In this document: positions 26,556 through 59,756 of the stretch, in pieces
How the letters are laid out: every line of letters begins with the position of its first letter
Position numbering within the stretch: the stretch's first letter is position 1
Source of the DNA: a virus
Lineage: Duplodnaviria > Caudoviricetes
Reading direction: 5' to 3' (one strand)
Virus record (IMG/VR): IMGVR_UViG_3300043410_001140
Coordinates: 1 to 61,423 of that record
DNA: 61,423 bases
Notes under the pieces: generated by a model
What the model saw: the letters and a program-made list of their open reading frames with translations, nothing else
Told to the model about the DNA's origin: nothing
Databases searched by the model: none
Translations under genes and position numbers: made by a program

Positions 26556-29500
26556 ATGCCAACATTAGCCCAACTTCGGGAAATTGTCCCCGGCTCAGAA
26601 AACATGTCGGATGCACAGCTCATCCAAAACGTAGCTGAAACTGCAAACCTAGACCCTGTAACTGTTGCGCAAAAGTTTGGCTTCAATCATTCTGATAGCG
26701 GGATCACTGGCCAACAGTTTTCATCATCACTTGATCGCTACCAAGCGGGTTTGTATGGAGTTGGTGAAGCTGCTGCGAATGCTGCGGGAGCGACTGGTGT
26801 TGGTGGTTGGCTGTCCGAGCAACGCAAAGAAAACGAACTGCGGGCTGATGTTTCAGCTGCAAAAGCCAAATCACTTGGCGCTGTCGATGAATGGAAAGAC
26901 GTTCACGGCCTGAAAGATTTTGGTAGCTACGCTAAAGGCTTGGCTGTCCAATCTGCTCCATACGCTGCTGAAGCTCTTGCTGGCGGTATGCTGGCTCGTG
27001 GCGCTATGGGCGGTACTCGTGCTGCACTTGCTGCGGCTGAAGCGTCCAACGACGTTAAAGGTATTGCTGACGCCAAACGCGCGCTGGACATTGGCTCTAC
27101 TTTGGGTGGCACTGCTGCCTCATACCCTTCGTCCGTTGGCGACATTCTTGGCAACCAGCGCGAGCAAAATGGTCAAACAAACCTTGGGGCTGCAGCTGCC
27201 TTGGGTGTTCCATATGCTGCGTTGAACGCGCTTGGTGAAACTGGTATGTTGACTCGTGGCCACTTGCCACGTAACCCAATCAGCATGCTGGACAATGTGA
27301 ACGGCCTCAAAGGCATGGCTGCTCGCACGGCTGCTGCTGGCGGTAAAACAGCCCTTGAAGAATCATTGGGCGAAACGGGCCAAGAAGTCGTTAACCAGCT
27401 CGGGCGCATGGCGGTTGACCCCAACGCTACGCTGACAGACCCACAAGCGCTGGAACGCTACAAAGAATCTGCCATTGGCGGCGCGACTCTGGGTGGTTTA
27501 ATGGGCGGTGGCCTTGGTGGCTGGCGCCGTTCGGGTAGCATTTTGCCTGACGCAACCCCCGGTACTCCCGCTCCTGACCAGCCAGTATCGACCAACGATA
27601 TTGCGCAAGCATTCAATGCTAATACTGACACAACTCCTGACGCCATCATCACTGGACTCCTTGGTCGAGCGGCTGATCCTCTTGCTGGGCGCTCTACTTT
27701 GGTTGGCCAAGGTGCATCAGATCAAACCCAAATACCTGCTGTCGCGGGCGGGACAACTGACGTTGCGGTTCAAGCGCAACAAGCACAAGCAGAACAACAG
27801 CAAGTTCAACAAGCCCAGCAACAACAAGTAGCTCGTGAGCAAACTTTCGAGCGTTTGGGCGCTACATACAACCCACAAGGCAACGGTGAGCTCAACATTT
27901 TTGGCCAAGCTGTCCTTGGTCATCAACAAATCAACCAGTTTGGCAACTTAGTCGCTGCTCAAATCTCGCAGTTGCCCGCACAGGCGCACGCCATTACTGA
28001 CGCGATTGTCCAAGCCAACCAAGAAACTGGCGGTAAACTGGTTTCGTTCAAATACAACGGCCAACCAATCTCTGGCGCTAAAGCCTTGATGAATGCGTTC
28101 GCCAAAGTGGCTACCAAGTTTCAGATTGGCCATGTTGCTTCGCCTGAAGAAGCCGCCGCTAACTTGGAAAAACTTTCTACAACCGTTTCTGGTACTCAGC
28201 TTGAGCAGTTGAATGCCATTTACCAAGCCTTAACAGGCAAAGATACATCCGGCTACATTGCCGAACAACAGTCCAAAGCAGCTAAAGAAGGAGCTAAAAA
28301 TGGAACAAAGCAAAACAATGCCGGGATTCGAGAAGTACCAGTCCAAGGCGGAACAACTGAAACAGGCGGAGCAGGAGCTGGGTCTGTACGACCCGCTGAA
28401 GTACAACCCGTCGGAGCAGGAAGTGTCGGAGCGGGATCGCTTGGCCTCCAAGTTGGACAGCCGACAACAAGCGGAGTACGGACAGGAACCAGTCCGAGTG
28501 GAAATTCTGCCGTATCCGAGTCTGGTGGGACGGGGCAAGGGACGGGGCAAGTAAATGAGCAAGCCACCCAAAACGGTGTGGGCGGGGGGCAAGTATCCGG
28601 TCAACCTGAACAAGCCAGCCAAGCCAACGTGGATCAGCAAACTGTTCGAAATGGCCCGCGCGTCTACCCAGTCCCACCCCAATACTACGCAACCGACCTC
28701 AGCCACATCCAAAGCGAACGCCGAGCAGAAATCCTAAATCAGCTCTTTACCACTGCGTTGCGCCCGCTGCAAGAGCGTAGCAATACGGTCTCCGCCGAAG
28801 TTCGTGCTGAAATCATGCGCCTTGCGTTGAATGAGCAATACTCACGAGACGACATTGCTGAGCTCACTGGGCTCAATGTGAAGACTGTTGAAAAGCAGTT
28901 GGAACGCATGCACATCAAACTGGTTAAAGTAAATTCTGAACATTCAGAATACCAAGTGACTGACCCCGCCATTGCCGTGGCCGTGGCCAACGCTGCCCAA
29001 GATTTCCGTTCACCTGAGTTTCCCGATGGGCTTGGCGAAGCAGAACTGACTGCTTTGTACCTCTCGCGCTACGAAGGCGAAGAAACTGGTACGCATGCGC
29101 TGGCAGACGAGCTGCAACAAGAAGGCAAACCAGAAGCCAAACTTGCCGAAGAAATTCATGGCAAAGAAAACGGTGCTGCCAAGTCAATGGGCATCGTGGA
29201 AAAAGGCGGAAGTCAGGGCGCAGTCGAAGCTTTGGCAACAAGCACATTTGATCGCGTGGAAAAACTCCAAGCGCAGTTGGATACACTGCCAGAGAAAGAC
29301 CCACGCCGCGCCAAGCTGGCCAAAGATATCGAAGCCCAATGGGCTGCTTACGCCAAACGCCAAACCAAGTGGGCAACCACTGGCGAAATTGAAGTCACAC
29401 CTACCGAAGAAGGAGAGACCAATGCCGTTCAAGAGCAAAGCGCAAATGAGGGAAATGTTCGCAAACCAGCCCGAGGTGGCAAAAAGGTGGGCGAAGGAAA

Positions 29501-32500
29501 CGCCAAACGCGAAAAGCCTGCCCGAAAAACTGAGCAAGCCAAAACCGAAGTCAACGCCAACGAAGCCGCGCCGGAAGTAAAAACTCCTGAAGAACAATGG
29601 GCTGCTCTTGCAAAAGAGTTTCCGCCCATGGGCAAGTATGCTGATCTCAGCACCGAAACAAAAACCAAGTGGGATGATCTGGCGCACCGTGGCGTTGCCA
29701 ATTTGGCTGCTGCTACCAAACTGCTGGAAAACCCCCTCGCAAGCCAAAGCACTCCGTTCGAGTCACTTTTGGAATTTGACGATCTGGCCTCCCATGTTGG
29801 TGGGCTAGACCTTGTGCGTGAACAGTTTGGCGAAGCTGGTATTGGCGATGCAGTTGATTTGGTTTCTGACTGGGAACTGACTAACGACAAGTCTGAAGGT
29901 GCTGCCCACGGTTCGCTGCGTGTGGTTCAAGGCCGCTACGTTGGCATGTTGAACATTGCCAAGCTGACAAATGCAGGCTACGCCGCTGAAACAGCGCGCC
30001 ACGAATTGGCTCATGCGATTGATATGGCTCCCCACGGCGGGATTTACTCTGCGCAACCAGAGATGGGTGTGGCTGTCGTCAATGGAACGATCACTCCAGA
30101 AGGCCCTGTGGCCAAAGAGTTGTTCAACTTGTACAAAACTGATGAACAATGGGGCAAATTCCTTGCGTACCCATTCGACACGGCTAAACATGCTGACCTG
30201 AACAACCGCACCAAAGTTCAAGTGGAATTGTTCGCGCAAGCGTTCTCTGTTTACACTACCCCCGAAGGCCGCGCTCGTATGGAGAAAGAAGCTCCAGTTA
30301 CGGCTGCATACTTTAAAGAGGTCATCCAAGATGTCAAATCTGCAAAACCGCTTCAAATCCAAAAGGCAGAAACTGCAGCACGCCGCGCCGCAGTTCTCCA
30401 CACTCGACGTGAATCCAAAGGCAATCGAGGCCCGTCTAAATTTCTTAGCTTCGACCAAAGAGTCGACGAGCTCGTCCTCAACAGCAAAAGCCAACAGTTC
30501 GAAGCAAGCAAGCCAGTAGGCCCATTCTCCAAAGCTGGTTCAGTCTTGGACGAGTTGCTGACTCGCCCGAAAGAGGCTTTGCACAAACTCAAACTCGGGT
30601 TCTTGACCCTTGAGCAGTTGGCCGAGTTGGACAAATCCGAAGCACAAGTCGTTCGCAAATACGCCGATGTGTCTACTGCGATGCAGATGATGTCCAAACG
30701 TTCTGTGGAAAAGGCCGCTCAGATCGACCAGCTGTGGGCTAAGTTGGATGCATCCACCTCTAAGGCGTTGTCCAATGTGATGCGCGCCGCCACTCGTATC
30801 GGGTTTGATCCTGATGTCGAAGACGCGAAAACACTGCCACAAAGCAAAGTCACACCTGAGCTGCTTGCGCTGGTCAATGACTACGAGAAGCTGCCAAACG
30901 CCGCCAAGAACGTGTACCGCCGTGTGCGCGACCACTACGCTGCCAACTATGAAGAACGCAAGTCCATCATGGAAGAAGTCGGCGCCAAGCTGGGCGGCAA
31001 AGCTCTTGAAGAAATCAAGGCGATGTACTCCAAGGTCAAAGGGCCTTACTTCCCGCTGGGTCGTACGGGTAAATACTATGCCGTTGGTATGTCTGCCCGA
31101 GTTGCTGAGTTGATGGACAAACGCGAAGCCGGTGAACTTGACCGTAAAGAAGCCGCCGAGCTGGCCAAATTGCGCCGCAACCCAACACAATACCGCACAA
31201 GTTCTTTCTCAACATTGGCCGAAGCCAAGAAAGCCGCCGAACAGTTTAAGAACCAACTGGGCTATGGCTACCACAATGAAGTCAAAGAGCGCTTGTCCAA
31301 TGCAGCGGCTTCGTTGCCAAACTTTGCCAAGATCGAAGAATATGTGAACTCACAGCTGGGTACTGACGTGCGCGATGAAGTTCGCAACATGTTGACTCAG
31401 ATGATGTTTGACATGCAGCCAGAACACAGTGCCTTGAAACGCCAGATGAAACGCGAAGGTATCTATGGCGAAAACGAAGATATGCGTCAGGTGTTTGCTC
31501 AGACTGCGATCAGCCAAGCACACTACATCAGCCGCCTGAAGTTTGGTGAAGTTTTGAATCAAGCCATGGCTGCCGTTGGCCGTGTGGCTCGTCGTGACAT
31601 TGAAATGCGCCAGATCGAAAACGAGCTGACCATGCGCACCAAGATTTCGATGGACAACACACAAAGCGCTCTGATTGATTCATTGGTCAACGCCAGCTAC
31701 TTTGCCCACCTTGGCTTGTCTCCAGCATTCTTGCTGACCAACTTGACGCAGGTTCCGATGATTACCGCCCCATGGCTGGGCGCTCGTCATGGTTTCGGCG
31801 CGACCAAACGTGCAATGGCTGCTGCGGTGGCTGACACGGCCAAGATCATCAAAACCACTTACGAAGGCGGCGATTGGCGCAGCGAGTTGAACTGGAATTC
31901 CATGTTCGCCGATGGCTCCAATGAAGACCGCATGTTCCGTGAGCTGCTTGACCGCAATGTGCTGGACATTACCATGGAGCATGATTTGGCTGCCGTTGCG
32001 TCTGCCAACCGTGGGTTCTTCGATGACAAGATTGCCTCAGCGTCTAAGGGAAAACTCCAAGGAATGAGCGATGTGGTTCGTCTGGTCAATACGCCTGTGC
32101 GTATCACTGAATTGGCCAACCGCGCCGTGACCGCTTTGTCTGCGTACCGTCTGAAGATGGAAGCCTTGGCTTCGGCTGACATGACACCAGAAGCAAAACA
32201 CACTGCTGCTGTGAACTACGCCGCGCGCGCCGTGTCTGAGACTCAGCTGAACTATTCTGAACTGAATGCCCCACGCCACATGCGTCAGCTCTTTGGCTCT
32301 AAGCCACTGGCCAAAATGGTGTTCCAGTTCCGCAAATATCAACAAGGCATGATGTACTTGGTTGCCAAGAACATTGCTGATGCGCTGCCCAATAGCAAAG
32401 CGTCCGCCGAAGACAAACGTATCGCCCGTAGAACGATTGCGGGTCTGTACGCAACGACTGGTCTGCTGGCTGGTACAACTGGCATGCCTTTGATGGGCAC

Positions 32501-33317
32501 AGTGGGTGTGGCTGGGATTGCAAACCTGATCGCTGCTGCGTTCGGTGAACCTGATGAGCCTTGGGATTTTGAAACTGAGTACCGCAACTTCTTGACTGAC
32601 TGGCTTGGCCACGACATGGCGTTGCTGGTTGCTAAGGGTTTACCCGCAGCTTTGGGTGCTGATGTGTCCAAACGAGTTGGCATGGCTGACATTGCCAATC
32701 CAATTCCATTCGTGCAGCGCGGCAACACTGGTTCTTCTACTGTGGCCAATACGATCTACGCTGGACTTGGCGCGCCTGCAGGCATGATAGGTACGATGTA
32801 CGACGGCCTCGTTGACTTGGCCAACGGTAATGGCCTCAAAGGAATCGAGAAATTGGTTCCCGTCAAAGAGCTCAAGGACGCACTGCGTACGTACCGCTAC
32901 TCCACTGAAGGGCTGACCGACAAGCGCGGAAATGTGGTGTTGCCACCTGAAAAATTTGATGCGTGGGATTTGTCTCTGCGTGGTATGGGCTTTACGCCAA
33001 CCATTGAGTCAGAGTATTACGCCGCGAATGCGGCTATGCAGAACGCGAAACAAGCTGCCACTGATGTGCGCAATGGACTGCTGGCTCGATACGCCCAAGC
33101 TAAAGTTGCTGGCGAAGACACAAGCGAGATTTCGCAAAAAGTTTCGGAGTTTAATGACCGCCACCCCGAACAAGGCGTACGTATTACTATGTCTAATTTG
33201 CTTCAAGCTACCCAAGCTCGACGTAAAATGGGCGCCGAAAGAACAAGTGCTGGCTTGCGTGTCGGCAAGGCTCAAAAACCATTTGCAGGCGAAGCTCGTT
33301 TCGCTGAAACAGAATAA
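26556..33317 (+). CDS. Large internal virion/ejection protein (polyvalent-like: HTH, zincin HExxH, PLxRFG-like)
   Basis: 2253 aa; YSRDDIAELTGLNVKTVEKQL; RHELAHAID...ELFAQ; YFPLGRTG. Confidence 0.82.
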   Translation: MPTLAQLREIVPGSENMSDAQLIQNVAETANLDPVTVAQKFGFNHSDSGITGQQFSSSLDRYQAGLYGVGEAAANAAGATGVGGWLSEQRKENELRADVSAAKAKSLGAVDEWKDVHGLKDFGSYAKGLAVQSAPYAAEALAGGMLARGAMGGTRAALAAAEASNDVKGIADAKRALDIGSTLGGTAASYPSSVGDILGNQREQNGQTNLGAAAALGVPYAALNALGETGMLTRGHLPRNPISMLDNVNGLKGMAARTAAAGGKTALEESLGETGQEVVNQLGRMAVDPNATLTDPQALERYKESAIGGATLGGLMGGGLGGWRRSGSILPDATPGTPAPDQPVSTNDIAQAFNANTDTTPDAIITGLLGRAADPLAGRSTLVGQGASDQTQIPAVAGGTTDVAVQAQQAQAEQQQVQQAQQQQVAREQTFERLGATYNPQGNGELNIFGQAVLGHQQINQFGNLVAAQISQLPAQAHAITDAIVQANQETGGKLVSFKYNGQPISGAKALMNAFAKVATKFQIGHVASPEEAAANLEKLSTTVSGTQLEQLNAIYQALTGKDTSGYIAEQQSKAAKEGAKNGTKQNNAGIREVPVQGGTTETGGAGAGSVRPAEVQPVGAGSVGAGSLGLQVGQPTTSGVRTGTSPSGNSAVSESGGTGQGTGQVNEQATQNGVGGGQVSGQPEQASQANVDQQTVRNGPRVYPVPPQYYATDLSHIQSERRAEILNQLFTTALRPLQERSNTVSAEVRAEIMRLALNEQYSRDDIAELTGLNVKTVEKQLERMHIKLVKVNSEHSEYQVTDPAIAVAVANAAQDFRSPEFPDGLGEAELTALYLSRYEGEETGTHALADELQQEGKPEAKLAEEIHGKENGAAKSMGIVEKGGSQGAVEALATSTFDRVEKLQAQLDTLPEKDPRRAKLAKDIEAQWAAYAKRQTKWATTGEIEVTPTEEGETNAVQEQSANEGNVRKPARGGKKVGEGNAKREKPARKTEQAKTEVNANEAAPEVKTPEEQWAALAKEFPPMGKYADLSTETKTKWDDLAHRGVANLAAATKLLENPLASQSTPFESLLEFDDLASHVGGLDLVREQFGEAGIGDAVDLVSDWELTNDKSEGAAHGSLRVVQGRYVGMLNIAKLTNAGYAAETARHELAHAIDMAPHGGIYSAQPEMGVAVVNGTITPEGPVAKELFNLYKTDEQWGKFLAYPFDTAKHADLNNRTKVQVELFAQAFSVYTTPEGRARMEKEAPVTAAYFKEVIQDVKSAKPLQIQKAETAARRAAVLHTRRESKGNRGPSKFLSFDQRVDELVLNSKSQQFEASKPVGPFSKAGSVLDELLTRPKEALHKLKLGFLTLEQLAELDKSEAQVVRKYADVSTAMQMMSKRSVEKAAQIDQLWAKLDASTSKALSNVMRAATRIGFDPDVEDAKTLPQSKVTPELLALVNDYEKLPNAAKNVYRRVRDHYAANYEERKSIMEEVGAKLGGKALEEIKAMYSKVKGPYFPLGRTGKYYAVGMSARVAELMDKREAGELDRKEAAELAKLRRNPTQYRTSSFSTLAEAKKAAEQFKNQLGYGYHNEVKERLSNAAASLPNFAKIEEYVNSQLGTDVRDEVRNMLTQMMFDMQPEHSALKRQMKREGIYGENEDMRQVFAQTAISQAHYISRLKFGEVLNQAMAAVGRVARRDIEMRQIENELTMRTKISMDNTQSALIDSLVNASYFAHLGLSPAFLLTNLTQVPMITAPWLGARHGFGATKRAMAAAVADTAKIIKTTYEGGDWRSELNWNSMFADGSNEDRMFRELLDRNVLDITMEHDLAAVASANRGFFDDKIASASKGKLQGMSDVVRLVNTPVRITELANRAVTALSAYRLKMEALASADMTPEAKHTAAVNYAARAVSETQLNYSELNAPRHMRQLFGSKPLAKMVFQFRKYQQGMMYLVAKNIADALPNSKASAEDKRIARRTIAGLYATTGLLAGTTGMPLMGTVGVAGIANLIAAAFGEPDEPWDFETEYRNFLTDWLGHDMALLVAKGLPAALGADVSKRVGMADIANPIPFVQRGNTGSSTVANTIYAGLGAPAGMIGTMYDGLVDLANGNGLKGIEKLVPVKELKDALRTYRYSTEGLTDKRGNVVLPPEKFDAWDLSLRGMGFTPTIESEYYAANAAMQNAKQAATDVRNGLLARYAQAKVAGEDTSEISQKVSEFNDRHPEQGVRITMSNLLQATQARRKMGAERTSAGLRVGKAQKPFAGEARFAETE
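28300..28554 (+). CDS. Nested +1-frame ORF A (84 aa)
   Basis: AAGGAG SD 6 nt before ATG; globular-like composition. Confidence 0.5.
   Translation: MEQSKTMPGFEKYQSKAEQLKQAEQELGLYDPLKYNPSEQEVSERDRLASKLDSRQQAEYGQEPVRVEILPYPSLVGRGKGRGK
28555..28737 (+). CDS. Nested +1-frame ORF B (60 aa)
   Basis: ATG immediately after the TAA of ORF A. Confidence 0.35.
   Translation: MSKPPKTVWAGGKYPVNLNKPAKPTWISKLFEMARASTQSHPNTTQPTSATSKANAEQKS
29422..29580 (+). CDS. Nested +1-frame ORF C (52 aa, MPFKSKAQ-type basic protein)
   Basis: AAGGAG SD; MPFKSKAQMREMFANQPEVAKRWAKETP resembles stand-alone small phage proteins (recollection). Confidence 0.6.
   Translation: MPFKSKAQMREMFANQPEVAKRWAKETPNAKSLPEKLSKPKPKSTPTKPRRK
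30331..30519 (+). CDS. Nested +1-frame ORF D (62 aa)
   Basis: GAGGT upstream of ATG; same frame as A-C. Confidence 0.3.
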   Translation: MSNLQNRFKSKRQKLQHAAPQFSTLDVNPKAIEARLNFLASTKESTSSSSTAKANSSKQASQ

Positions 33318-49603: not shown

Positions 49604-49842
49604 GCTTTCTCCAATATGTAGAACGACCACAGCCACGCTTTGGCGTCATCTTCGTTGGTGAAGTATCGAAGTCCTCGCCCGCTGAGTAACTCAGCGTAGT
49701 AAGTCCTTAGCCCATCGGGGTCTTGTAAAACTACTTCGCCTACGATTGTCCTGCCCAATGCATAGCTTGTGTCGCATAGATACCATTGAGCGAAGCCAGC
49801 CCTGTCACGGCCGCCCTCACCTGTACGCCGCCATTGCATCAT
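49594..49842 (-). CDS. Small protein, family B (W...F....AK.W)
   Basis: Pattern shared with 52684, 54611 and 56666. Confidence 0.7.
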   Translation of the reverse strand: MMQWRRTGEGGRDRAGFAQWYLCDTSYALGRTIVGEVVLQDPDGLRTYYAELLSGRGLRYFTNEDDAKAWLWSFYILEKACR

Positions 49843-50942
49843 GCGTCTAGCTCGAAATGGATGTTTTCACCATGGGGCGCTTGGACGTCGGAGGAGATAC
49901 ACCACACGACGGGATATCCGGGATCACTTCCAAAATCTGTGTAACCATCCGTAAGGCAAACAAATACCTCCGGAGCAATACCATGTTCAGCACAGTACTC
50001 AAAGCCAGCAGGCATATCAGTACCACCACCCGAGTAGAACTCCAGTTGAACTTCTTCACCACAATCGAATTCGACATGTTTTTGAACCTCGGTGTCTGTG
50101 TAGAGAACGTGAACTTTGTCAGGACGACATTGCTCGATGATTCGTGATAGGTGACCGTTGTATGCGTTCAACTCTTGGCGTGAGATAGAACCGGACACAT
50201 CGACTTGAACAACAAGCTCACCCATCTGTGGCAACTTGTCTGTGGATGGTAAGTAGTCTTCGAAGCGGCGGTTGCGGCGGCGCCATGTTTGACCTTGAGC
50301 CACGCATGCAGTCATGTGCTTTTCAAGAATGTCGTACCAAGGTGTCTTGACTTCGAGAATGTCAGCCACGATTTTTTCCAACATGCCAGACATCTTGCCG
50401 CGCATCTTGGCGGCTTGGGCAGCTTCGGCGATCTCGACTTTGATCTGACCTTCGATCTCGCGGATTTCGTCTGGGGTCAATGCTTTGCCGTTTGCGCTAC
50501 CATCACCGTAGATGATGTCGTGACCTGTACCACCAGAACCATCGGGGTTGTCGGGCAACTCGTCGTAGATTGTTTCAGTGGTCTTGTCTTTGCTGCCAGC
50601 GATGTTCACTGTGTTGGGAATGCGATCACCAACTCGGCTGTCGTCAAGCGTGTCATTGATCCAAGCGTCACCTGCGTAGTTCCACTTCTTCTTGTCGCGG
50701 TTACCGCAACGCAAAGCATGCTGGCCGATCACATGGCCAACCTCATGGCACAGACCCCAAACGATCTGGGGCACAGTCAAGCCCTCCAAGAACTTCTCGT
50801 TGTAGTAGATGTTGGCACGAGCATCGACTGCCAGTGTTGGCACTTGATCTGTTTTGATGAGCTTGCGGCGCAAAAGAATTGCGGCAAAGAAAGGGTGGTC
50901 CAAAACAATTTGTGCTTTGGCTTTTTCAAGTTTTGTTGCCAT
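49839..50942 (-). CDS. VWA-like plus putative metallopeptidase (DUF2201-type)
   Basis: HEVGH zincin motif, WNYA.D..IN, MIDAS DVSGS, GGGT, LTDG. Confidence 0.88.
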   Translation of the reverse strand: MATKLEKAKAQIVLDHPFFAAILLRRKLIKTDQVPTLAVDARANIYYNEKFLEGLTVPQIVWGLCHEVGHVIGQHALRCGNRDKKKWNYAGDAWINDTLDDSRVGDRIPNTVNIAGSKDKTTETIYDELPDNPDGSGGTGHDIIYGDGSANGKALTPDEIREIEGQIKVEIAEAAQAAKMRGKMSGMLEKIVADILEVKTPWYDILEKHMTACVAQGQTWRRRNRRFEDYLPSTDKLPQMGELVVQVDVSGSISRQELNAYNGHLSRIIEQCRPDKVHVLYTDTEVQKHVEFDCGEEVQLEFYSGGGTDMPAGFEYCAEHGIAPEVFVCLTDGYTDFGSDPGYPVVWCISSDVQAPHGENIHFELDA

Positions 50943-52683: not shown

Positions 52684-52914
52684 TCAGTTTCCTTTCTCCA
52701 TTCTTGCTTGAGTAAATATCCACGCCTTGGCTTCGTCCAAGTCGGTGAACTGCATACGATCAGCAGATTCATGCATCATCCACGCTGTGTAGACGTTGCC
52801 AACCCCTGACTTCATGATGAAGCCTAGGGGGGTAGTACCATTGGTTTCGTAAAGAACCCAATCACACAGAGTGCCCTTCTTCCATTCAACCCAATTAGGA
52901 GAGGACGTTGGCAT
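52684..52914 (-). CDS. Small protein, family B
   Basis: FTDLDEAKAWI...RME. Confidence 0.65.
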   Translation of the reverse strand: MPTSSPNWVEWKKGTLCDWVLYETNGTTPLGFIMKSGVGNVYTAWMMHESADRMQFTDLDEAKAWIFTQARMEKGN

Positions 52915-53899
52915 TTTTCACAGCCCACTGGACAAATGCTTTGGTGTTGACGATCTCAGGCTTGAGCTTCTTGGAGTCCAAAACACACATGACTTGGAAC
53001 TCAGCTGGCATGCGGCCAATGTATTCGCACACACGGTCAAAGTTATCCTTGCTGACACGGTGAGCAATAGCACCAGTCAACGCAAACAACACTGGCATGT
53101 CGTCAGGCACAGCAGCTTTGGCAGGATTCATCAAGATGCCGTCAATGTCAGGCAGCGATTCAAAGATGCGCTTGAAGCCTGTGTACTCAGCCGCCGCACC
53201 CTCGCCCACACAGCCAGCGATGTTGGAGTAGTACAGATCAGTGGACAAGCTGGTATCGACTTCGTTTGCCATAGCCCATGAACGTGGCGTTGGGTTGATT
53301 GTGCGGTTGGGATCGAAGTCAGACAGCATGTTGGGTCGGAAGCGCAAGAACTGCACCATTTCCACAGCGATGTTGTTGTCCAAAGCCCAATCGCACCAGT
53401 CGTCCAAGTTCTCGTCGAACATCAACGTCTGCATACGGTTGCCCAGCTTGGTGCTCATGCGAGTCGCGCCAGACTTGTCTTCGGTACGGTTACCTGTTGC
53501 AATGATGTGCAGCTTGGGATGCAACTTGAGCTCACCCGCGTATCGGTCGAGGATCACACGACACAACGGATTCTGCATGGGGATAGCAGCGTCAGACAGT
53601 TCTTCGAGAATCAATGCACAGGGCTGATCCGAACCATCGTCACGGATGCGGTAGAACTCGGATGGGGGAATCCAGCGTGAGCAATCACCGTCAGTCTTTG
53701 GCAAGCCCATGATGTCCACAGGATCGCGCAATGATGGATTGAATTCTGTGATGCGTTCTGGGGAAATGCCAAGTGACGCAACAATCTCACGAGCCAATGT
53801 TGACTTGCCGCCGCCGGGCTTGCCAATGATGTTGGGCACAAGTTGATTACCCTTGGCGAAGTTAGCGAGAACAGAAGTTTTGATGTCAGAGTATTTCAT
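52895..53899 (-). CDS. MoxR-like AAA+ ATPase
   Basis: Walker A GKPGGGKS, Walker B LILEEL, ATGNR, NR finger, PTPRSW. Confidence 0.9.
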   Translation of the reverse strand: MKYSDIKTSVLANFAKGNQLVPNIIGKPGGGKSTLAREIVASLGISPERITEFNPSLRDPVDIMGLPKTDGDCSRWIPPSEFYRIRDDGSDQPCALILEELSDAAIPMQNPLCRVILDRYAGELKLHPKLHIIATGNRTEDKSGATRMSTKLGNRMQTLMFDENLDDWCDWALDNNIAVEMVQFLRFRPNMLSDFDPNRTINPTPRSWAMANEVDTSLSTDLYYSNIAGCVGEGAAAEYTGFKRIFESLPDIDGILMNPAKAAVPDDMPVLFALTGAIAHRVSKDNFDRVCEYIGRMPAEFQVMCVLDSKKLKPEIVNTKAFVQWAVKNANVLS

Positions 53900-53936
53900 G
53901 GTTTCTTTCAATGAGTGAATGGTTGAGTTGAAGTGA

Positions 53937-54168: not shown

Positions 54169-54402
54169 TCAGTCGGCGGCATCGAGTACCTTTCTTAGAT
54201 ATGCTGCGACTGATTCGTCGTCAGTGTTGATGAAAACGAATTGGGATTCGCCGTTATCGTCTGTGCAAGCAAGGACTTCGTAACATTCACGTCCGTCTAT
54301 TTGTGGATCGAACATGAACTCGCACCCTCTACAGTTTCGTATTACCTTGACCTTGTAGAAGATTCCGTCACGCCACACACCAGTGAGGTCAACGGGTATC
54401 AT
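54169..54402 (-). CDS. 4-Cys mini-protein, family A member 13
   Basis: CRGCEF...C...C...FVF...ESVAAYLRKVLD. Confidence 0.78.
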   Translation of the reverse strand: MIPVDLTGVWRDGIFYKVKVIRNCRGCEFMFDPQIDGRECYEVLACTDDNGESQFVFINTDDESVAAYLRKVLDAAD

Positions 54403-54614
54403 GCCATGCGCTCATGTGCAAGTGTTCTGATTTGTGGCTCGGGGTAATCCAGCATAGCTTGCACTTGTACTAGAAAAGCATTTGGTCGTTTGTATGCGTT
54501 ATCCCTGTAATAGCCCATCAAGAATTCAAGTGCATCAGCGTGGTCAGAATTCAGCCACTTTAAGACTTGGCCTGCGTCGCTCACTATCAAGTACTGCCCA
54601 TTTTTCGCTCTCAT
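54399..54614 (-). CDS. Hypothetical protein
   Basis: Coupled; ends LAHERMA. Confidence 0.7.
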   Translation of the reverse strand: MRAKNGQYLIVSDAGQVLKWLNSDHADALEFLMGYYRDNAYKRPNAFLVQVQAMLDYPEPQIRTLAHERMA

Positions 54615-54862
54615 GCTTCCTCCAATCGTTTGTTCACAAAGTACGCGATGATGTGTTCTTTAGCTTCTTTGCATGTCTTGAAGCATCCGTGATACGGTGG
54701 CTCAACGCCTCTGTCTTCTGCTTCATTAGCGAACACTCTGAATTCACCCTTGCGCGTGTCATGTCTGACATACGCCAAGAGATTGTTGTCTCTGTCGAGG
54801 TAGTCCCAGAACTCATAGTAGAGTTTGCGCCGTGAGTTACGGCCATGTTTCTTCCACTTCAT
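54611..54862 (-). CDS. Small protein, family B
   Basis: MKWKK...FKTCKEAK...KRLEEA. Confidence 0.72.
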   Translation of the reverse strand: MKWKKHGRNSRRKLYYEFWDYLDRDNNLLAYVRHDTRKGEFRVFANEAEDRGVEPPYHGCFKTCKEAKEHIIAYFVNKRLEEA

Positions 54863-55095
54863 TCTTCTAACATTGAGGAAACTTCCAACGCCACCTCAAG
54901 CTCATCAACGATAGTCCACATGGACGCCATGCGTGTGTCACCCAACATGTAGTAGTGACGTTCGAATTCTTGTGGCGTTTTGAATGGCAAGCCATGAATG
55001 TTTGTGTACACGCCGGTATCGTCACTCATGCTGAATTGCATGCTTGGTTGTGCTTCATCGCGGTCAAACGTCAAACAGTAATTCCACATCATCAT
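54859..55095 (-). CDS. Hypothetical protein
   Basis: AGGAG SD before MMMWNY. Confidence 0.65.
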   Translation of the reverse strand: MMMWNYCLTFDRDEAQPSMQFSMSDDTGVYTNIHGLPFKTPQEFERHYYMLGDTRMASMWTIVDELEVALEVSSMLEE

Positions 55096-55247
55096 TCGTA
55101 TCTCCTGAAAGTTAATGCATGCGCCCAATCGCGGCCTGAGTCGTACGCTCGTTGCAAACCATAGTCGCCATACCATTTGGTATAGAAGCTACGGAACTCA
55201 TACATTCCATAGAAGAATGCTTTGATTCGATACCAGTCGTAGATCAT
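55092..55247 (-). CDS. Aromatic-rich 51-aa protein
   Basis: Manual translation MIYDWYRIKAFFYGMYEFRS...AYDSGR; ATGA overlaps on both sides. Confidence 0.65.
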   Translation of the reverse strand: MIYDWYRIKAFFYGMYEFRSFYTKWYGDYGLQRAYDSGRDWAHALTFRRYE

Positions 55248-55519
55248 TCGACTTTCTCCCCGTTGAATTCAAGGTAACAAGTTGTCCACTTGTATTGCGT
55301 TTGTTTGCGTAGGTATGCCCTAGCGTCGTGTTCTTTGGCGAAGAGATTACGCCAAGGTTTCCATTCGGAGTTGCCTTCGTTACCCCATGAGGTAAAGACA
55401 ACCACGCACCAAGGTTTGTCCACTTTCTTCTTGCGCCCTTTGGGTGCTACGACTTTGGCATCAGTCTGCCCAAGGCGTTTGGATTTGTACTTGTTAACTT
55501 CCTCGCGGTAGTCACTCAT
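55244..55519 (-). CDS. Hypothetical basic protein
   Basis: Coupled ORF. Confidence 0.7.
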   Translation of the reverse strand: MSDYREEVNKYKSKRLGQTDAKVVAPKGRKKKVDKPWCVVVFTSWGNEGNSEWKPWRNLFAKEHDARAYLRKQTQYKWTTCYLEFNGEKVE

Positions 55520-55755
55520 CCTGCTTTCTCCAATCGTTTCTTAACGTACTCCGCAATACCATTTTGTGTTGCGCGTACAAAGATATAGCCTTCGAATTCC
55601 CCGCCAAGGTCGCATGGTCTACCTTGTTGCTCTTCATTTATGCAATGGGACTTATCGAACTCTGTGTGGTCAAGCTGACATCCGATGCAGTCTCCATCTT
55701 CTAACCACGGCATGGGTTTCCAATAGACACCGTTGACTTTGATCTTTGTTCTCAT
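55516..55755 (-). CDS. 4-Cys mini-protein, family A member 12
   Basis: CIGC...C...C...YIFV...IAEYVKKRLE. Confidence 0.8.
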   Translation of the reverse strand: MRTKIKVNGVYWKPMPWLEDGDCIGCQLDHTEFDKSHCINEEQQGRPCDLGGEFEGYIFVRATQNGIAEYVKKRLEKAG

Positions 55756-55994
55756 TACGAATACTCCAGCTTATGTGCAACGTAGTCCGCTATCCCTCGA
55801 TTGGTAGCTGGCACGAAGATGTAATCAGTTGCCATATCATCAACACACATAAGAACTGTGGATGTATTTTGGGGGCACCTGCTACTACTTTCTTTTTGTG
55901 GGAAAAAGCAACAACCAGTGCATGGTGGTATTTTATTGGTCACCTGTTTGCACAGATAGTAGTCACGTGTGCCGATGCGTTTTCGTTTCATCAC
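55755..55994 (-). CDS. 4-Cys mini-protein, family A member 11
   Basis: CTGCCF...CP...C...IADYVAHKLE. Confidence 0.8.
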   Translation of the reverse strand: MMKRKRIGTRDYYLCKQVTNKIPPCTGCCFFPQKESSSRCPQNTSTVLMCVDDMATDYIFVPATNRGIADYVAHKLEYS

Positions 55995-56242
55995 GAATAC
56001 TCCAGCTTGTGTGCAACGTAGTCAGCCAGTCCCTGCTTGGTCGCTGGCACGAAGATGTAATCTGTTAGCAAGTCGGTTTCAATTTCTTGGCATAACATTG
56101 TTGTGTCGGCTCTGGTTGGACATTTATTGCTCCCATTTTCTCGAAGCCCAAGGAAAACACAACCTTCGCAGATGTCCATGTTGTCGTTGTCTACCTGTTT
56201 GAGCAAGTAGTAGTTGCGTGTGCCGATGCGTTTTCGTTTCAT
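55991..56242 (-). CDS. 4-Cys mini-protein, family A member 10
   Basis: CEGCVF...CP...C...LADYVAHKLE. Confidence 0.8.
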   Translation of the reverse strand: MKRKRIGTRNYYLLKQVDNDNMDICEGCVFLGLRENGSNKCPTRADTTMLCQEIETDLLTDYIFVPATKQGLADYVAHKLEYS

Positions 56243-56472
56243 CCTGCTTGCTCCAATCGTCTAATAACATAGGCGGCTATGGCCTCGGGATCGTCCAAAA
56301 CAAACACGGGTGAATCACTTTCACACGCAGCCAACTCGTTTCTGTCAGCACAATCTTTGCCCCCTGATGGAATTAGTGAGCATCCAAAGCATCGGCCAGC
56401 TATTATTGACGGCATCGCTTTGTAGTTTTTCCCTTCGTACACCAATATGTCTCCGACTTCATGCAGTATCAC
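56239..56472 (-). CDS. 4-Cys mini-protein, family A member 9
   Basis: CFGC...C...C...PEAIAAYVIRRLE. Confidence 0.8.
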   Translation of the reverse strand: MILHEVGDILVYEGKNYKAMPSIIAGRCFGCSLIPSGGKDCADRNELAACESDSPVFVLDDPEAIAAYVIRRLEQAG

Positions 56473-56669
56473 AGCGTCACCTCTGCATGGATGTACTCGA
56501 CTTCATAGCCCAGCGCCAAGATGTGCTTGACTGTGGCCATTGTCAGAGTCTTTGTGCCTGCGATTGCCGCAAACAGTTTGGCCTCGTTGTTATGTGGGTA
56601 CAGCGCTTGACTGCCGTAGTTTTGTTTGACCTTGAGTTGTACAAGTTTGTCCATGATGTTTCCGATCAT
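56469..56669 (-). CDS. Hypothetical protein (NYG...YP....AKLFA.IAGTKTL type)
   Basis: Coupled ORF, unrelated to families A and B. Confidence 0.75.
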   Translation of the reverse strand: MIGNIMDKLVQLKVKQNYGSQALYPHNNEAKLFAAIAGTKTLTMATVKHILALGYEVEYIHAEVTL

Positions 56670-56893
56670 CTGTTGGCTTCGTCTAACCGTCTGACCACAG
56701 CGACAACCGCCAATGCGTCAGATGCTTCTATGAATGTTTTGAACCACGGCGACCGGTATCCAAGTGCGCATGCTCGATAGAAGCCTTCGTATTTTTCAAC
56801 CCACATATATAAGTAGTTGTCTTGGTTATCGAATGCGTCCACAACATCCACTTTTAAGATGCCACTGAGTCGCACGTTCTCTTTGAAAATCAT
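56666..56893 (-). CDS. Small protein, family B-like
   Basis: FKTFIEA...VRRLDE. Confidence 0.68.
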   Translation of the reverse strand: MIFKENVRLSGILKVDVVDAFDNQDNYLYMWVEKYEGFYRACALGYRSPWFKTFIEASDALAVVAVVRRLDEANR

Positions 56894-56904
56894 GATAGGT
56901 GGCC

Positions 56905-57111
56905 TTATCCCAGTTTTTCTTTGACGTATTCTGTAATGTCTTCGGGTGTGTCTTCCACGTAGATTTCATCGTTGACACATGCTGCCTCTGTTGGGCATCC
57001 CCCAGCGTATTCAAACGCACACCCTCGGCATCCCAGTAGTTTGTTTTCGTCACCTGAGTCCAAGGCTGTGAGAACGACGTATGTTTTACCCGCAATCGTT
57101 TGGCGTTTCAT
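56905..57111 (-). CDS. 4-Cys mini-protein, family A member 8
   Basis: Start MKRQT; CRGCAF...CP...C...TPEDITEYVKEKLG. Confidence 0.8.
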   Translation of the reverse strand: MKRQTIAGKTYVVLTALDSGDENKLLGCRGCAFEYAGGCPTEAACVNDEIYVEDTPEDITEYVKEKLG

Positions 57112-57320
57112 GTCATCCTTTCGTCCACGAACTTGGCAATGGCTTCGGGTGTGCTCTCGATGAAATATCCACCAACGACTTCTAGGCAGAAAAATTTTTG
57201 CGCTTCTGTGCTCATGTCTTTCGGGCATTCCCCGTCAAGAAAGTAACATGACCTACACGAAAACTTGTTTGGCGCTGTTACCAACAGGAATTCTTTGCCT
57301 TGTGTGTAGTGTTTTTTCAT
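57108..57320 (-). CDS. 4-Cys mini-protein, family A member 7
   Basis: CRSCYF...CP...C...TPEAIAKFVDERM. Confidence 0.8.
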   Translation of the reverse strand: MKKHYTQGKEFLLVTAPNKFSCRSCYFLDGECPKDMSTEAQKFFCLEVVGGYFIESTPEAIAKFVDERMT

Positions 57321-57541
57321 TCCAACCTCAGAGCTACGTAGTTAGCGATGGACTCCGGTGTGTCTGCGATCAACAAGCCGTCATCAATAGACGTACACAA
57401 CAGAGGGCCACGTTCGCCGAATGTTGAATCCCTATCTGGGCAGAGAGTGCCCACGGGTGCAAACACACAATGGTCACACGGATCGTGATTTTTCAACGCA
57501 ACAAGCAAGTACGGTTTGCCATTGATCTCTACCTTGGTCAT
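57317..57541 (-). CDS. 4-Cys mini-protein, family A member 6
   Basis: CDHCVF...CP...C...TPESIANYVALRLE. Confidence 0.8.
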   Translation of the reverse strand: MTKVEINGKPYLLVALKNHDPCDHCVFAPVGTLCPDRDSTFGERGPLLCTSIDDGLLIADTPESIANYVALRLE

Positions 57542-57759
57542 TCCAACCTCGCAGCGATGTATGCGGCTACGGCCTCGGGTTTGTCCTCAATAAACATTCC
57601 ACCTTGGAGCGAACCTTGGAACGTAACGCACATTAAGACACCAGACTCAGTTCTTGGGCACGGCGTTGCGCGCAAAAACGCGCACGTTCCACACGCATTT
57701 CTTTTAGGCGGTGTTTTTACCAGCAGGTATGGCTTGCCCCCTACCTCAATCGGTGTCAT
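57538..57759 (-). CDS. 4-Cys mini-protein, family A member 5
   Basis: Start MTPIEV; CGTCAF...CP...C...PEAVAAYIAARLE. Confidence 0.8.
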   Translation of the reverse strand: MTPIEVGGKPYLLVKTPPKRNACGTCAFLRATPCPRTESGVLMCVTFQGSLQGGMFIEDKPEAVAAYIAARLE

Positions 57760-57971
57760 TCCAACCTCCGAGATATGTATGCGGCTACTGCCTTGGGTGT
57801 GTTCTTGACGTAGATCAAATCGGGAAAGCATGCTGCATTTGTTGGGCATCTGGTATGCACAAACGCACAACCCTTACATCCATCTACTAAGCTGGGGACG
57901 TGTTTGTTTTTGAGTCCGCGAACTAATACGTATGACTTACCATCAATGGTCTGCTCTACTGGATCGTTCAT
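57756..57971 (-). CDS. 4-Cys mini-protein, family A member 4
   Basis: CKGCAF...CP...C...TPKAVAAYISRRLE. Confidence 0.8.
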   Translation of the reverse strand: MNDPVEQTIDGKSYVLVRGLKNKHVPSLVDGCKGCAFVHTRCPTNAACFPDLIYVKNTPKAVAAYISRRLE

Positions 57972-58192
57972 GCGTGTTCCAATCGTTCGAGTGTTTTTTG
58001 CAGGGCTAGCAGTCGTTTCTTACCGCCAATCTTTATGACGTGTCTCGCGTCCGCTTCTTCCAATGTCAGGTTGTTCCACCGCATTGTTGAACCTCTTTGT
58101 GCATGCCACTGTTCTAGCTTCCAAACGACGGTGAACCTACTCGGCGCGCCGTTTGACCAGACCCTCAGCAGCACATGCTTGGGCGCACTCAT
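57968..58192 (-). CDS. Hypothetical protein ending in RLE
   Basis: Start MSAPKH, GAGGAG SD; no Cys. Confidence 0.65.
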   Translation of the reverse strand: MSAPKHVLLRVWSNGAPSRFTVVWKLEQWHAQRGSTMRWNNLTLEEADARHVIKIGGKKRLLALQKTLERLEHA

Positions 58193-58389
58193 TTCATGCG
58201 CTCCTCGGCTACCCATTGGACGAATCGTTGTTCGTATACCCAACTGTCGTTGAACATGTTGCCTCCGCTGTGGCAGTCTGGTAGGCCTTCGCAAATAGGG
58301 CTTCCCGATGGTATGCCTATACATGAACCGCACCCGTCCAACGGGATTAGGTAGATGGTTCTACCTTCGAATGTGGATTGCGTAGTCAT
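58189..58389 (-). CDS. 4-Cys mini-protein, family A member 3 (AEERM subgroup)
   Basis: CGSC...C..LP.C...FVQWVAEERMK. Confidence 0.8.
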   Translation of the reverse strand: MTTQSTFEGRTIYLIPLDGCGSCIGIPSGSPICEGLPDCHSGGNMFNDSWVYEQRFVQWVAEERMK

Positions 58390-58586
58390 TTCATGCGCTC
58401 CTCAGCTAGCCATTTGACAAAGCCTTCTTCGTCCACCCAGCAATCGTTGGATGAATCACCGCCGTGTGTGCATGTTGGTAGGTCTCTACACTCAATATCC
58501 GACCCATCGGTTCCAAGGCATGTCTCGCATCCACGAAACGTCACTAGATAGATGGTTTTGCCGTCCAAGGTTGATTGTTTAGTCAT
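58386..58586 (-). CDS. 4-Cys mini-protein, family A member 2 (AEERM subgroup)
   Basis: Start MTKQST; CETC...C..LP.C...FVKWLAEERMK. Confidence 0.8.
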   Translation of the reverse strand: MTKQSTLDGKTIYLVTFRGCETCLGTDGSDIECRDLPTCTHGGDSSNDCWVDEEGFVKWLAEERMK

Positions 58587-58789
58587 TCCATGCGTTCCTC
58601 GGCTACCCATTTGGCAAACCGTTCGGCATCCACCCAACATGTGTGCCTGTCTTTTCCAACCTCGGCGTATATCTCGCATTCAGGCAGATCACGGCACAGT
58701 TCTGAGTTTCCAGTGGCCACGCATTCGTTGCACCCATTACCAACAATGAGGAACAGTTGCTTGCCTTTGTATGTTGTGGTCATCGTCAT
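58583..58789 (-). CDS. 4-Cys mini-protein, family A member 1 (AEERM subgroup)
   Basis: CNEC...C..LP.C...FAKWVAEERME. Confidence 0.8.
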   Translation of the reverse strand: MTMTTTYKGKQLFLIVGNGCNECVATGNSELCRDLPECEIYAEVGKDRHTCWVDAERFAKWVAEERME

Positions 58790-59028: not shown

Positions 59029-59463
59029 TTACTTATCTTGTGAGCGTAACGTTTCTACCATTGTTTTGTACTTGGCCGCATGTACTTCGCCAATGAATGA
59101 CGGCACTCGATTAGCCATAGCAACACCAGCATCTTGCAATACTATGGACACTGCCAGCTCTTTGGTTGTTGGGTATCCAGCAGCGTTGACACGCACCGGC
59201 TGAAGAACACCATCGCGGTCTTTAAAGCACACCACTTCAGCACCGTTATAGTCTTCCACTAAGGCTTTCAGTTCTTCATGTTTCTTGGCAATGGCTTTGT
59301 CCAGCGTAGAACCAACAGATGTTGGGGGTGGAAGTTCTCTGTCCATTACATATCCAATATACCCCGACAAGCTACGGCGCATTTCGTTTGCTTTGTCCTG
59401 AATCCGTTTGTGCAGGTCAGCAGGAACGGTGACTAAAATTTTTGCAGACTTTGCTTCTGACAT
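59029..59463 (-). CDS. Arc/RHH-domain DNA-binding protein
   Basis: KILVTVPADLHKRI...RRSLSGYI; AAGGA SD. Confidence 0.75.
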   Translation of the reverse strand: MSEAKSAKILVTVPADLHKRIQDKANEMRRSLSGYIGYVMDRELPPPTSVGSTLDKAIAKKHEELKALVEDYNGAEVVCFKDRDGVLQPVRVNAAGYPTTKELAVSIVLQDAGVAMANRVPSFIGEVHAAKYKTMVETLRSQDK

Positions 59464-59564
59464 GGTTGATCCTTTTTAAACAGTAGACACACAGTATATC
59501 TACTTGGAATAAATTATATCACATCTATTACGTTTACGCAAATGTGAAGCGTATATTAAAAATG

Positions 59565-59756
59565 CTATTCCTCCACGAACTCCAAATCGTCAACAGATGC
59601 ATCATTCTTTTGCATGAGTGCGGCCGGCTTTGTAACTCCGAGGGCATCGAGCTGTTGCATTATTACTGCTGTCATTGAAATACGTTTGACTGATGCGTAG
59701 TTCTTCAGCGCAAGGTAGTCAGACTCGTTTAGCCTTAATGTGATGGTTTTCATCAT
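59565..59756 (-). CDS. RHH-like DNA-binding protein
   Basis: KTITLRLNESDY..LK..A...ISMT.VI. Confidence 0.72.
   Translation of the reverse strand: MMKTITLRLNESDYLALKNYASVKRISMTAVIMQQLDALGVTKPAALMQKNDASVDDLEFVEE

Follow-up and report, generated by a model that had tools for sequence, protein, structure and literature searches.

An array of thirteen small four-cysteine proteins with variable central loops upstream of an ATPase gene in an uncultured podovirus-like phage

Introduction

Two described groups of small metal-binding proteins come closest to the system considered here, an array of genes for short four-cysteine proteins (the Cys family) in the virus record IMGVR_UViG_3300043410_001140 (Duplodnaviria; Caudoviricetes). 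The C4 zinc ribbons and rubredoxin-type knuckles are likewise small, contain four cysteines and place a C-x-x-C turn right after a beta-hairpin; unlike them, the Cys family has no second C-x-x-C, its third and fourth cysteines being single and mostly 8-12 residues apart. The high-potential iron-sulfur proteins (HiPIP) and 4Fe-4S ferredoxins resemble it in a size of ~55-85 residues, in a C-x-x-C followed two positions on by an aromatic residue and in a Cys-Pro ligand, whereas the Cys family is cytoplasmic, phage-encoded and multi-copy. A third point of comparison is DUF3310 (PF11753), a domain of unknown function. The metagenome protein P0112 (191 aa) consists of two Cys-domain copies and a DUF3310 domain (E 3.3e-14), and therefore the Cys domain is also a module in larger phage proteins. 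The array differs from this case in that its 13 proteins are single-domain and in that it does not contain DUF3310.

The window, that is the whole stretch of DNA analysed, is the complete virus record of 61,423 bp. Its Cys proteins keep four cysteines on a common scaffold and vary strongly in the loops between them. The reading that is favoured, with a probability of roughly 0.45, is that they form a metal-stapled, probably zinc-binding mini-scaffold whose variable loops bind different host targets and whose genes lie in one coupled operon ahead of the replication genes.

Organization of the array

Between 58960 and 54169, the minus strand is tiled with 22 small genes. Thirteen of them are the open reading frames (ORFs) for Cys proteins that an initial annotation had reported from the nucleotide sequence, and all 13 minus-strand ORFs, of 66-83 aa, were recovered at the starts it had given.

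m01, 58583..58789, minus strand: 68 aa, group A (divergent branch), five cysteines; AlphaFold predicted local distance difference test (pLDDT) 68.5
m02, 58386..58586, minus strand: 66 aa, group A; ATGA-coupled start internal to a longer ORF
m03, 58189..58389, minus strand: 66 aa, group A, four cysteines
m04, 57756..57971, minus strand: 71 aa, group B; closest paralog m08; hidden Markov model (HMM) E 2.1e-20
m05, 57538..57759, minus strand: 73 aa, group B; the modelled member; HMM E 6.8e-26
m06, 57317..57541, minus strand: 74 aa, group B; sister of m05
m07, 57108..57320, minus strand: 70 aa, group B
m08, 56905..57111, minus strand: 68 aa, group B
m09, 56239..56472, minus strand: 77 aa (GTG start), group B; its best relative is outside the window phage
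m10, 55991..56242, minus strand: 83 aa, group B; nine metagenome orthologs at 56-74% identity
m11, 55755..55994, minus strand: 79 aa, GTG start (ATG one codon in); tandem duplicate of m10, sister support 96
m12, 55516..55755, minus strand: 79 aa, group B; in a widespread subfamily
m13, 54169..54402, minus strand: 77 aa, group B; ends the array ahead of the ATPase; weakest of the members, HMM E 1.8e-16, external relative 1.3e-19
Eight non-family small genes, span 54399..58192, minus strand: interleaved and translationally coupled with the Cys members
First four of these, minus strand: 57968-58192, 56666-56893, 56469-56669, 55244-55519
Last four of these, minus strand: 55092-55247, 54859-55095, 54611-54862, 54399-54614

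The near-universal ATGA/TAATG coupling that had been described for these genes was also found, with 19 of the 21 junctions of the tiled block being overlaps (18 ATGA or GTGA overlaps of 4 nt and one TAATG overlap of 1 nt) and the remaining two being gaps of 9 and 11 nt. Eleven Cys ORFs start with ATG and two with GTG (56472 and 55994, the latter with an ATG one codon downstream). The starts at 58586, 57759 and 57111 are ATGs inside longer ORFs; they overlap the upstream stop codon and are preceded by a Shine-Dalgarno sequence. As for the eight interleaved genes, none of them scored with either the ten-member or the 150-row family HMM described below, and orthologs of four (56469-56669, 55092-55247, 54859-55095 and 54611-54862) are present in related loci.

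A scan of the array for internal promoters and terminators gave nothing convincing, the number of sites being lower than in shuffled sequences (five promoter sites observed versus 11.6 expected by chance). Downstream, the array is followed by an ATPase gene, further on by a DUF2201 gene and then by the replication genes. From this arrangement it would appear that the array genes make up one translationally coupled transcript placed before the replication genes.

Homology within the array

The initial annotation had treated all 13 proteins as one family. This held for ten of them at the level of profile HMMs, while m01-m03 join the others only at the profile-profile level. Pairwise blastp comparisons among m04-m13 gave E values of 1e-5 to 1e-31, and an HMM built from these ten, run against the 1177 ORFs of a six-frame translation of the window, recovered each of them (E 1.8e-16 to 8.2e-30), with the next ORF at 0.0033. 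By sequence comparison, m04-m13 are thus certain to be paralogs of one family.

The three proteins of group A match one another by blastp at 3e-16 to 3e-25. They are missed by the ten-member HMM (E 0.74, 2.2 and 7.7); with a 150-row HMM, m02 reached E 0.0024, m01 0.0035 and the third 0.61, and an ORF in the wrong frame scored 0.0016. This ORF, 25669-25842 on the plus strand (E 0.0016-0.0033), lies inside the 25137-26546 gene and was judged to carry a chance cysteine pattern; it sets the noise level for weak HMM matches. Alignment of the group A profile with that of the main family by hhalign gave P 0.0012, and 2e-4 with the 150-row profile. After the addition of a group A relative from another phage (L009:2069-2290), the probability rose to 87.5% (P 3.6e-6) over 59 colinear columns in which the four cysteines and the C-terminal helix are all aligned. 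It is therefore probable, as judged from these profiles, that m01-m03 belong to the same superfamily as m04-m13.

The four cysteine columns are invariant in a joint alignment of all 13 proteins. Blastp, comparison with external relatives and a tree bore out the presence of at least three subgroups, namely m01-m03, m04/m08, m05/m06/m07 and m10/m11, with m09, m12 and m13 as singles.

Sequence architecture

Each member is laid out as an N-terminal beta-hairpin (G-K-x-Y...V), a cysteine loop region, a third strand and a C-terminal helix. The cysteine pattern reads C-x-G-C-x-F, 6-12 residues, C(P), 8-12 residues, C, and the helix follows the pattern T-P-E-A-I-A-x-Y-V-A-x-R-L-E.

These proteins had been described as having constant ends around a hypervariable centre, which is correct for the centre and for the C-terminal end and holds only weakly for the N-terminus. 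Among the ten members of the main family, mean pairwise identity is 39% in the last 19 columns versus 20% in the centre (cysteine columns left out), and the N-terminal part is barely above the centre at 25%. In the same way, an alignment of 150 members gave 24% for the N-terminal part, 16% for the centre and 41% for the C-terminal end. Gaps follow the same division, with about ten gap differences per pair in the centre of the ten-member alignment and none in the last 19 columns. Only the C-terminal strand and helix are clearly constant, the N-terminus keeping just G-K-x-Y...V. In one pair, m04/m08, the centre is more conserved than the ends.

The common scaffold of four invariant cysteines with variable, indel-rich loops between them was nevertheless confirmed. 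In the 150 sequences the cysteine columns are 99-100% conserved, whereas the columns between them have an entropy of 3.4-4.2 bits and many gaps. Other well-kept positions are G25 (77%), F28 (79%), A65 (91%) and Y67 (88%), and also I57, T60 and L72. Exactly four cysteines are present in 111 of 156 single-domain sequences, and fewer in none of the 156. In 155 sequences the spacing is C-x2-C, then mostly 6-12 residues to the third cysteine and mostly 8-12 to the fourth, the gap between third and fourth ranging from 2 to 25 with a mode of 9; a proline directly follows the third cysteine in 80 of the 155.

Divergent members were observed in two related phages (L003:9139-9561 and L004:6436-6855), in which H-x-x-C replaces C-x-x-C, with extra His beside the other Cys. 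This suggests, from the sequence, a site of the Cys3His type in these proteins.

Predicted fold and the nature of the cysteine site

A common fold, expected by the initial annotation, is supported by prediction. With the 150-row alignment, AlphaFold modelled m05 at pLDDT 90.9 and a predicted template modelling score (pTM) of 0.78, with strands at residues 2-6 and 9-15, the cysteine loop region at 23-44, a strand at 54-58 and a helix at 61-72. The elements of the m01 model, which was built from the three group A sequences, come in the order seen in the main family, at the lower confidence listed above.

Comparison with solved structures returned no match. A Foldseek search of the PDB with the m05 model gave a best E of 2.9. 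VIA-align against 48,161 chains gave 22 with Z ≥2 and none with Z ≥5, the best being the SUI1 domain of eIF2D at Z 3.1, where the typical best chance Z is 7-8. A search of BFVD gave a best E of 0.13, to uncharacterised phage proteins. At the level of the model, no solved fold was matched, which for so small a protein does not by itself prove a novel fold; without a match, however, no solved structure can serve to assign a function.

With four cysteines invariant in the 13 proteins and kept at 99-100% in the 150, the family has what is generically expected of a metal-type Cys4 protein. Zinc-ribbon Pfam models matched none of the 150 members, and the only zinc-ribbon-type chain in the fold list is a ribosomal protein of 43 aa (Z 2.5).

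The same cysteines may be read as ligands of an Fe-S cluster or as a C-x-x-C redox pair, used for electron transfer or redox sensing. The C-x-G-C-x-F motif with a proline after the third cysteine is reminiscent of HiPIP and ferredoxin ligand motifs, and two Fe-S models were touched below threshold in Pfam, Fer4_21 by m04 (E 0.0045, 17.5 bits versus a cut-off of 35) and LRV_FeS by m08 (E 0.04). However, Fer4_21 is touched by only one of the 150 members at E ≤0.01, and the HiPIP model by none of the 13 members or 150 relatives at that threshold. The ferredoxin motif C-x2-C-x2-C-x3-C-P is absent from the family alignment. Among the 22 chains with Z ≥2, found with an m05 model without cofactor, there is no HiPIP or ferredoxin, the only Fe-S proteins being two sulfite reductase chains at Z 2.4-2.6. 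Moreover, the environments of Fe-S clusters are usually conserved, whereas the loops around the cysteine ligands of this family are hypervariable, and there is no obvious use for thirteen divergent electron carriers in one early operon. Such a role is thus considered unlikely.

Relatives outside the window

The absence of the proteins from catalogued families, also noted by the initial annotation, was confirmed in Pfam, PHROG, NCBIfam and the sequences of the PDB. None of the 13 window members reached a Pfam cut-off, and the 150 relatives touched five Pfam families with one member each (E 0.002-0.007). In PHROG v4 none of the 150 members matched, and for the 13 window members the only hit was that of m02 to phrog_10421 (E 0.0096). 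NCBIfam matched none of the 150, and a profile search of PDB sequences gave nothing under E 1. The source records of the relatives carry no protein names. In the literature, as far as listings and abstracts go, no account of the Cys family or of a function of DUF2201 was found. The Cys family is absent from all catalogues searched and is, so far, phage-specific.

A HMMER scan of 1.84 billion protein representatives with the ten-member profile found 185 at E ≤1e-3, of which 17 were at E ≤1e-10. Nearly all of the 185 have 64-120 aa and match from end to end. Four are tandem forms with two to four copies of the hairpin/cysteine/strand unit, one of them fused to DUF3310; in addition, a 413-aa repeat protein among the matches looks spurious. 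Wherever the surroundings of a locus could be seen, it lay on a phage-like contig 58-63 kb long or on part of such a contig, and the closest clusters in the ESM Atlas consist of viral hypothetical proteins (67-100% viral). Family members have so far been seen only in uncultured phage contigs.

Tblastn of one member (P0019, one of about 150) against named phages gave no match at E ≤0.01, and Pseudomonas phage Rollin has neither a Cys-family member at E ≤1 nor a DUF2201 protein. An early alignment search for proteins of the m10 type found none in IMG/VR and one metagenome contig of 2.3 kb. Group A alone had no external relatives by word-based search; group A together with the member from G005 (see below) found one further relative, P0172.

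Copy number and history

Family members were counted in related records at E ≤0.01 with the 150-row profile.

G001, 60.6 kb: 4 copies
G002, 58.1 kb: 1 copy and one divergent H-x-x-C copy
G003, contig 41 (in a metagenome-assembled genome), 62.7 kb: 4 copies
G005, 59.6 kb: 2 copies and one group A member (found by tblastn)
G004 (fragment), 7.2 kb: 4 copies
L001 (fragment), 2.3 kb: 4 copies

The expansion that had been proposed for the array is borne out by these counts, with 13 copies in the window versus 2-4 in related phages of ~60 kb. The nearest relative is G005, whose ATPase is 87.5% identical, yet whose matching Cys members are just 35-37% identical; its early block, from the first small gene to the ATPase, measures ~2.2 kb versus ~5 kb in the window. 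The early block of G005 is headed by a different small protein with two C-x-x-C pairs (L009:856-1077), which is without counterpart in the window array. In a syntenic fragment, the Cys members differ between anchor genes that are conserved and do not belong to the family. As read from the sequences, this pattern of copy number and divergence is what accessory genes with fast turnover would show.

A quick tree was built from 158 sequences; m01-m03 were left out of it, as were near-copies of window members and five proteins with repeats or several domains. Only seven of its 155 branches are well supported. The ten window copies need eight label changes on it versus a shuffled mean of 9.8, and the only sister pairs are m10/m11 (support 96) and m05/m06 (85). 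An external relative scores clearly higher than any window paralog in the case of m09, m10, m12 and m13, and narrowly higher in that of m05 and m11. On this poorly resolved tree, the window copies do not appear to form one clade. The array would rather be made of several old subfamilies together with a few local duplications (m10/m11, m05/m06/m07, m04/m08 and m01-m03). A recent burst was considered and rejected, as most copies fall in old subfamilies with closer relatives in other phages.

The gene boundaries themselves are repeated. The codons of the R-L-E tail (or R-M-E/K), together with the stop codon, supply the gene that follows with its Shine-Dalgarno sequence and its overlapping ATG; an identical 12-nt word is found at the ends of m04, m05 and m06 (57756-57770, 57538-57552 and 57317-57331). 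Part of the constancy of the R-L/M-E tail is therefore set at the DNA level, because these codons double as the ribosome-binding site and start of the following gene. A 20-nt boundary word occurs four times at 85-100% identity, including at junctions of non-family genes, and 87-nt repeats span the junctions at 61-75% identity. In m10/m11, synonymous divergence (pS) is lower at the ends (0.46 and 0.35) than in the centre (0.88), which fits either ends that were homogenised or exchanged at the boundaries or a centre that was replaced.

These repeats, and the apparent exchange at the ends of m10/m11, raise the question of whether the repeated boundaries have driven a duplication of cassettes whose copies are largely redundant or in decay and lack individual functions. 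Such an origin is very unlikely in view of the state of the genes. All 13 frames are open with four cysteines kept in each, core positions are conserved across the 150 relatives, and in every pair tested the C-terminal part has a nonsynonymous divergence (pN) clearly lower than pS. The four members whose best external relative outscores any window paralog (m09, m10, m12 and m13) speak against it as well.

Genomic neighbourhood

The window has a podovirus-like gene set with portal/adaptor, major head protein, a 2253-aa internal protein, DNA polymerase A, helicase and primase-helicase. Its large terminase subunit (TerL) shares no more than 43% identity with its counterparts in named phages, the best being Pseudomonas phage Rollin (43%), and megablast and blastn of the array DNA against 50,697 phage records returned zero matches. 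The stretch is present in two sequencing runs, both from one freshwater metagenome sample that may be its source; no RNA run is listed as containing it. The C-terminal 700-900 residues of the 2253-aa protein (window 26556-33317) match PHROGs of giant phage proteins, one of which is labelled DarB-like antirestriction (E 8e-62). Upstream of the array, at 59029-59756, lie two small genes that by eye have the look of ribbon-helix-helix proteins; one of them reaches 25.7 bits with Pfam DUF6290, just below the cut-off of 27.

Two neighbours on the downstream side are conserved along with the array.

ATPase, 52895..53911, minus strand: phrog_1297 ATPase (E 4.6e-68), directly downstream of the array
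DUF2201 protein, 49839..50942, minus strand: putative metallopeptidase with a VWA-like part (Pfam DUF2201_N 3.8e-38, DUF2201 1.9e-21)

The window ATPase matched no Pfam family at E ≤0.001, and for this reason a MoxR label is not used. Cys members lie just upstream of the ATPase and on the same strand in five of the five genomes with context (the window, G001, G002, contig 41 of G003 and G005). The ATPase orthologs of the four others, at 39-88% identity, are likewise just downstream of Cys members, and orthologs of the DUF2201 protein are found in all four. Relatives of the DUF2201 protein at ~30% identity also occur beside an AAA ATPase in cultured phages (582 records, most of them N4-like), where they often carry the label 'HNH endonuclease'.

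This arrangement, kept over such a range of ATPase identity, is consistent with the mini-proteins working together with the ATPase and DUF2201 pair as adaptors, substrates or regulators, the C-terminal helix docking and the loops taking the target. A second early family with paralogs, which has no cysteines, points the same way in one respect: its window representative (54611-54862) and relatives share with the Cys family only the last 13 residues, at the helix end. The codons for R-L-E, however, carry the ribosome-binding site of the next gene, which can explain part of the shared tail. The other copies of this second family are L009:1074-1325, 2349-2594 and 2591-2812, that is three in G005, and L001:1792-2055. 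Homology between the two families was rejected, as the likeness covers 13 C-terminal columns only (hhalign probability 17.6%).

A predicted complex of the ATPase, the DUF2201 protein and m05 gave weak support, with a score of 0.49 (runs 0.49, 0.51 and 0.26), compared with 0.10 for the best of three controls, and the score drops to 0.10 when the DUF2201 chain is replaced. At least 84% of contacts are common to the runs, and the pLDDT of the partner is 71 or more. In the calibration of the tool, 58 of 80 solved complexes and 2 of 110 mismatched pairs came up to its mark; scores up to 0.60 included only 7 of the 80 solved complexes and both passing mismatches, so that a pass at this level is, by the calibration, more likely to be false than true. 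Moreover, two of the chain alignments have just four rows and the job differed from those of the calibration.

The wider distribution of the pair also speaks against a partnership. DUF2201 and the ATPase occur together in the 582 cultured phage records, whereas searches of cultured phages did not recover the Cys family (tblastn with one member; PHROG, 0 of 150), and therefore the machine does not need the Cys family. In addition, gene order in phages follows timing, which makes adjacency weak evidence. Altogether, a joint function with the pair, the foremost alternative to the favoured reading, is doubtful, although the position of the genes lends it some credit. A more elaborate version, a modular targeting system in which Cys proteins and unrelated small proteins dock by a common C-terminal helix on the DUF2201 protein, the partner of the ATPase, while the metal-stapled loops of the Cys proteins pick host proteins, is improbable. 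If it were true, an adaptor repertoire would hand chosen host proteins to a single unfolding and cleaving machine.

A proposed metal-stapled repertoire of binders

Returning to the favoured reading, the four cysteines would hold one metal ion, most likely zinc, which would staple two loops of variable sequence and length onto a small core of sheet and helix. The paralogs would be co-produced from one coupled transcript ahead of the replication genes, and each would bind with its own loops a different target in the host cell, in the service of host takeover or counter-defence. Distinct targets for each paralog would explain why several old subfamilies are kept while copies are gained, lost and duplicated between conserved neighbours. 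Zinc is favoured as the metal because of the single C-x-x-C turn, the exchange of histidine for cysteine in the divergent members and the lack of a family-wide Fe-S signal (1 of 150). Exchange of histidine for cysteine is common in zinc sites.

The nature of the targets may be judged in part from charge. The isoelectric point (pI) is below 6 in 65% of 156 members and the median net charge is -3.4, and because of this acid bias, protein targets are favoured over DNA. Under the opposite choice the proteins would be small regulators that bind nucleic acid and act on the transcription, translation or DNA of the phage or its host. Three members with a pI of at least 8.4 and faint fold likenesses to PC4-type single-stranded DNA binders (Z 2.1-2.2) and to eIF1/SUI1 domains (Z 2.2-3.1) would fit such regulators, as would the K/R-rich N-terminus of m10/m11 and their orthologs. 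These scores are nonetheless far below the best Z typical of chance, Pfam searches of the members found no helix-turn-helix or known DNA-binding motif, and most members are acidic. A general role of this kind therefore appears improbable.

Several observations weigh against a repertoire of binders for host proteins. Four of the 13 members are basic, with m04, m05 and m11 at pI 8.4-9.0, and m10, m11 and their orthologs have a K/R-rich N-terminus, so that some members may bind nucleic acid. That several subfamilies are conserved across distant phages agrees equally well with fixed roles and with an arms race. Taken by region, dN/dS (the ratio of nonsynonymous to synonymous substitution rates) meets saturation at synonymous sites in nine of the ten pairs tested, and no claim of positive selection is made. 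Variable loops between metal ligands would also be expected under relaxed constraint, and early expression of the operon is deduced from its position only.

Concluding remarks

The conserved adjacency puts forward the Cys proteins as a first candidate partner, open to testing, of the ATPase and DUF2201 pair, which is found in hundreds of N4-like phages. The Cys proteins form a widespread family (at least 185 clusters) whose fold is predicted with confidence while none of its relatives has been solved, which makes them a good target for structure determination. The change from 2-4 to 13 copies on the same genomic backbone is a natural experiment on what drives such expansions. If the favoured reading is true, phages would have diversified a compact natural scaffold of ~70 aa with one metal site and two free loops, which would be useful both for finding new targets of host takeover or counter-defence and as a small binder framework.

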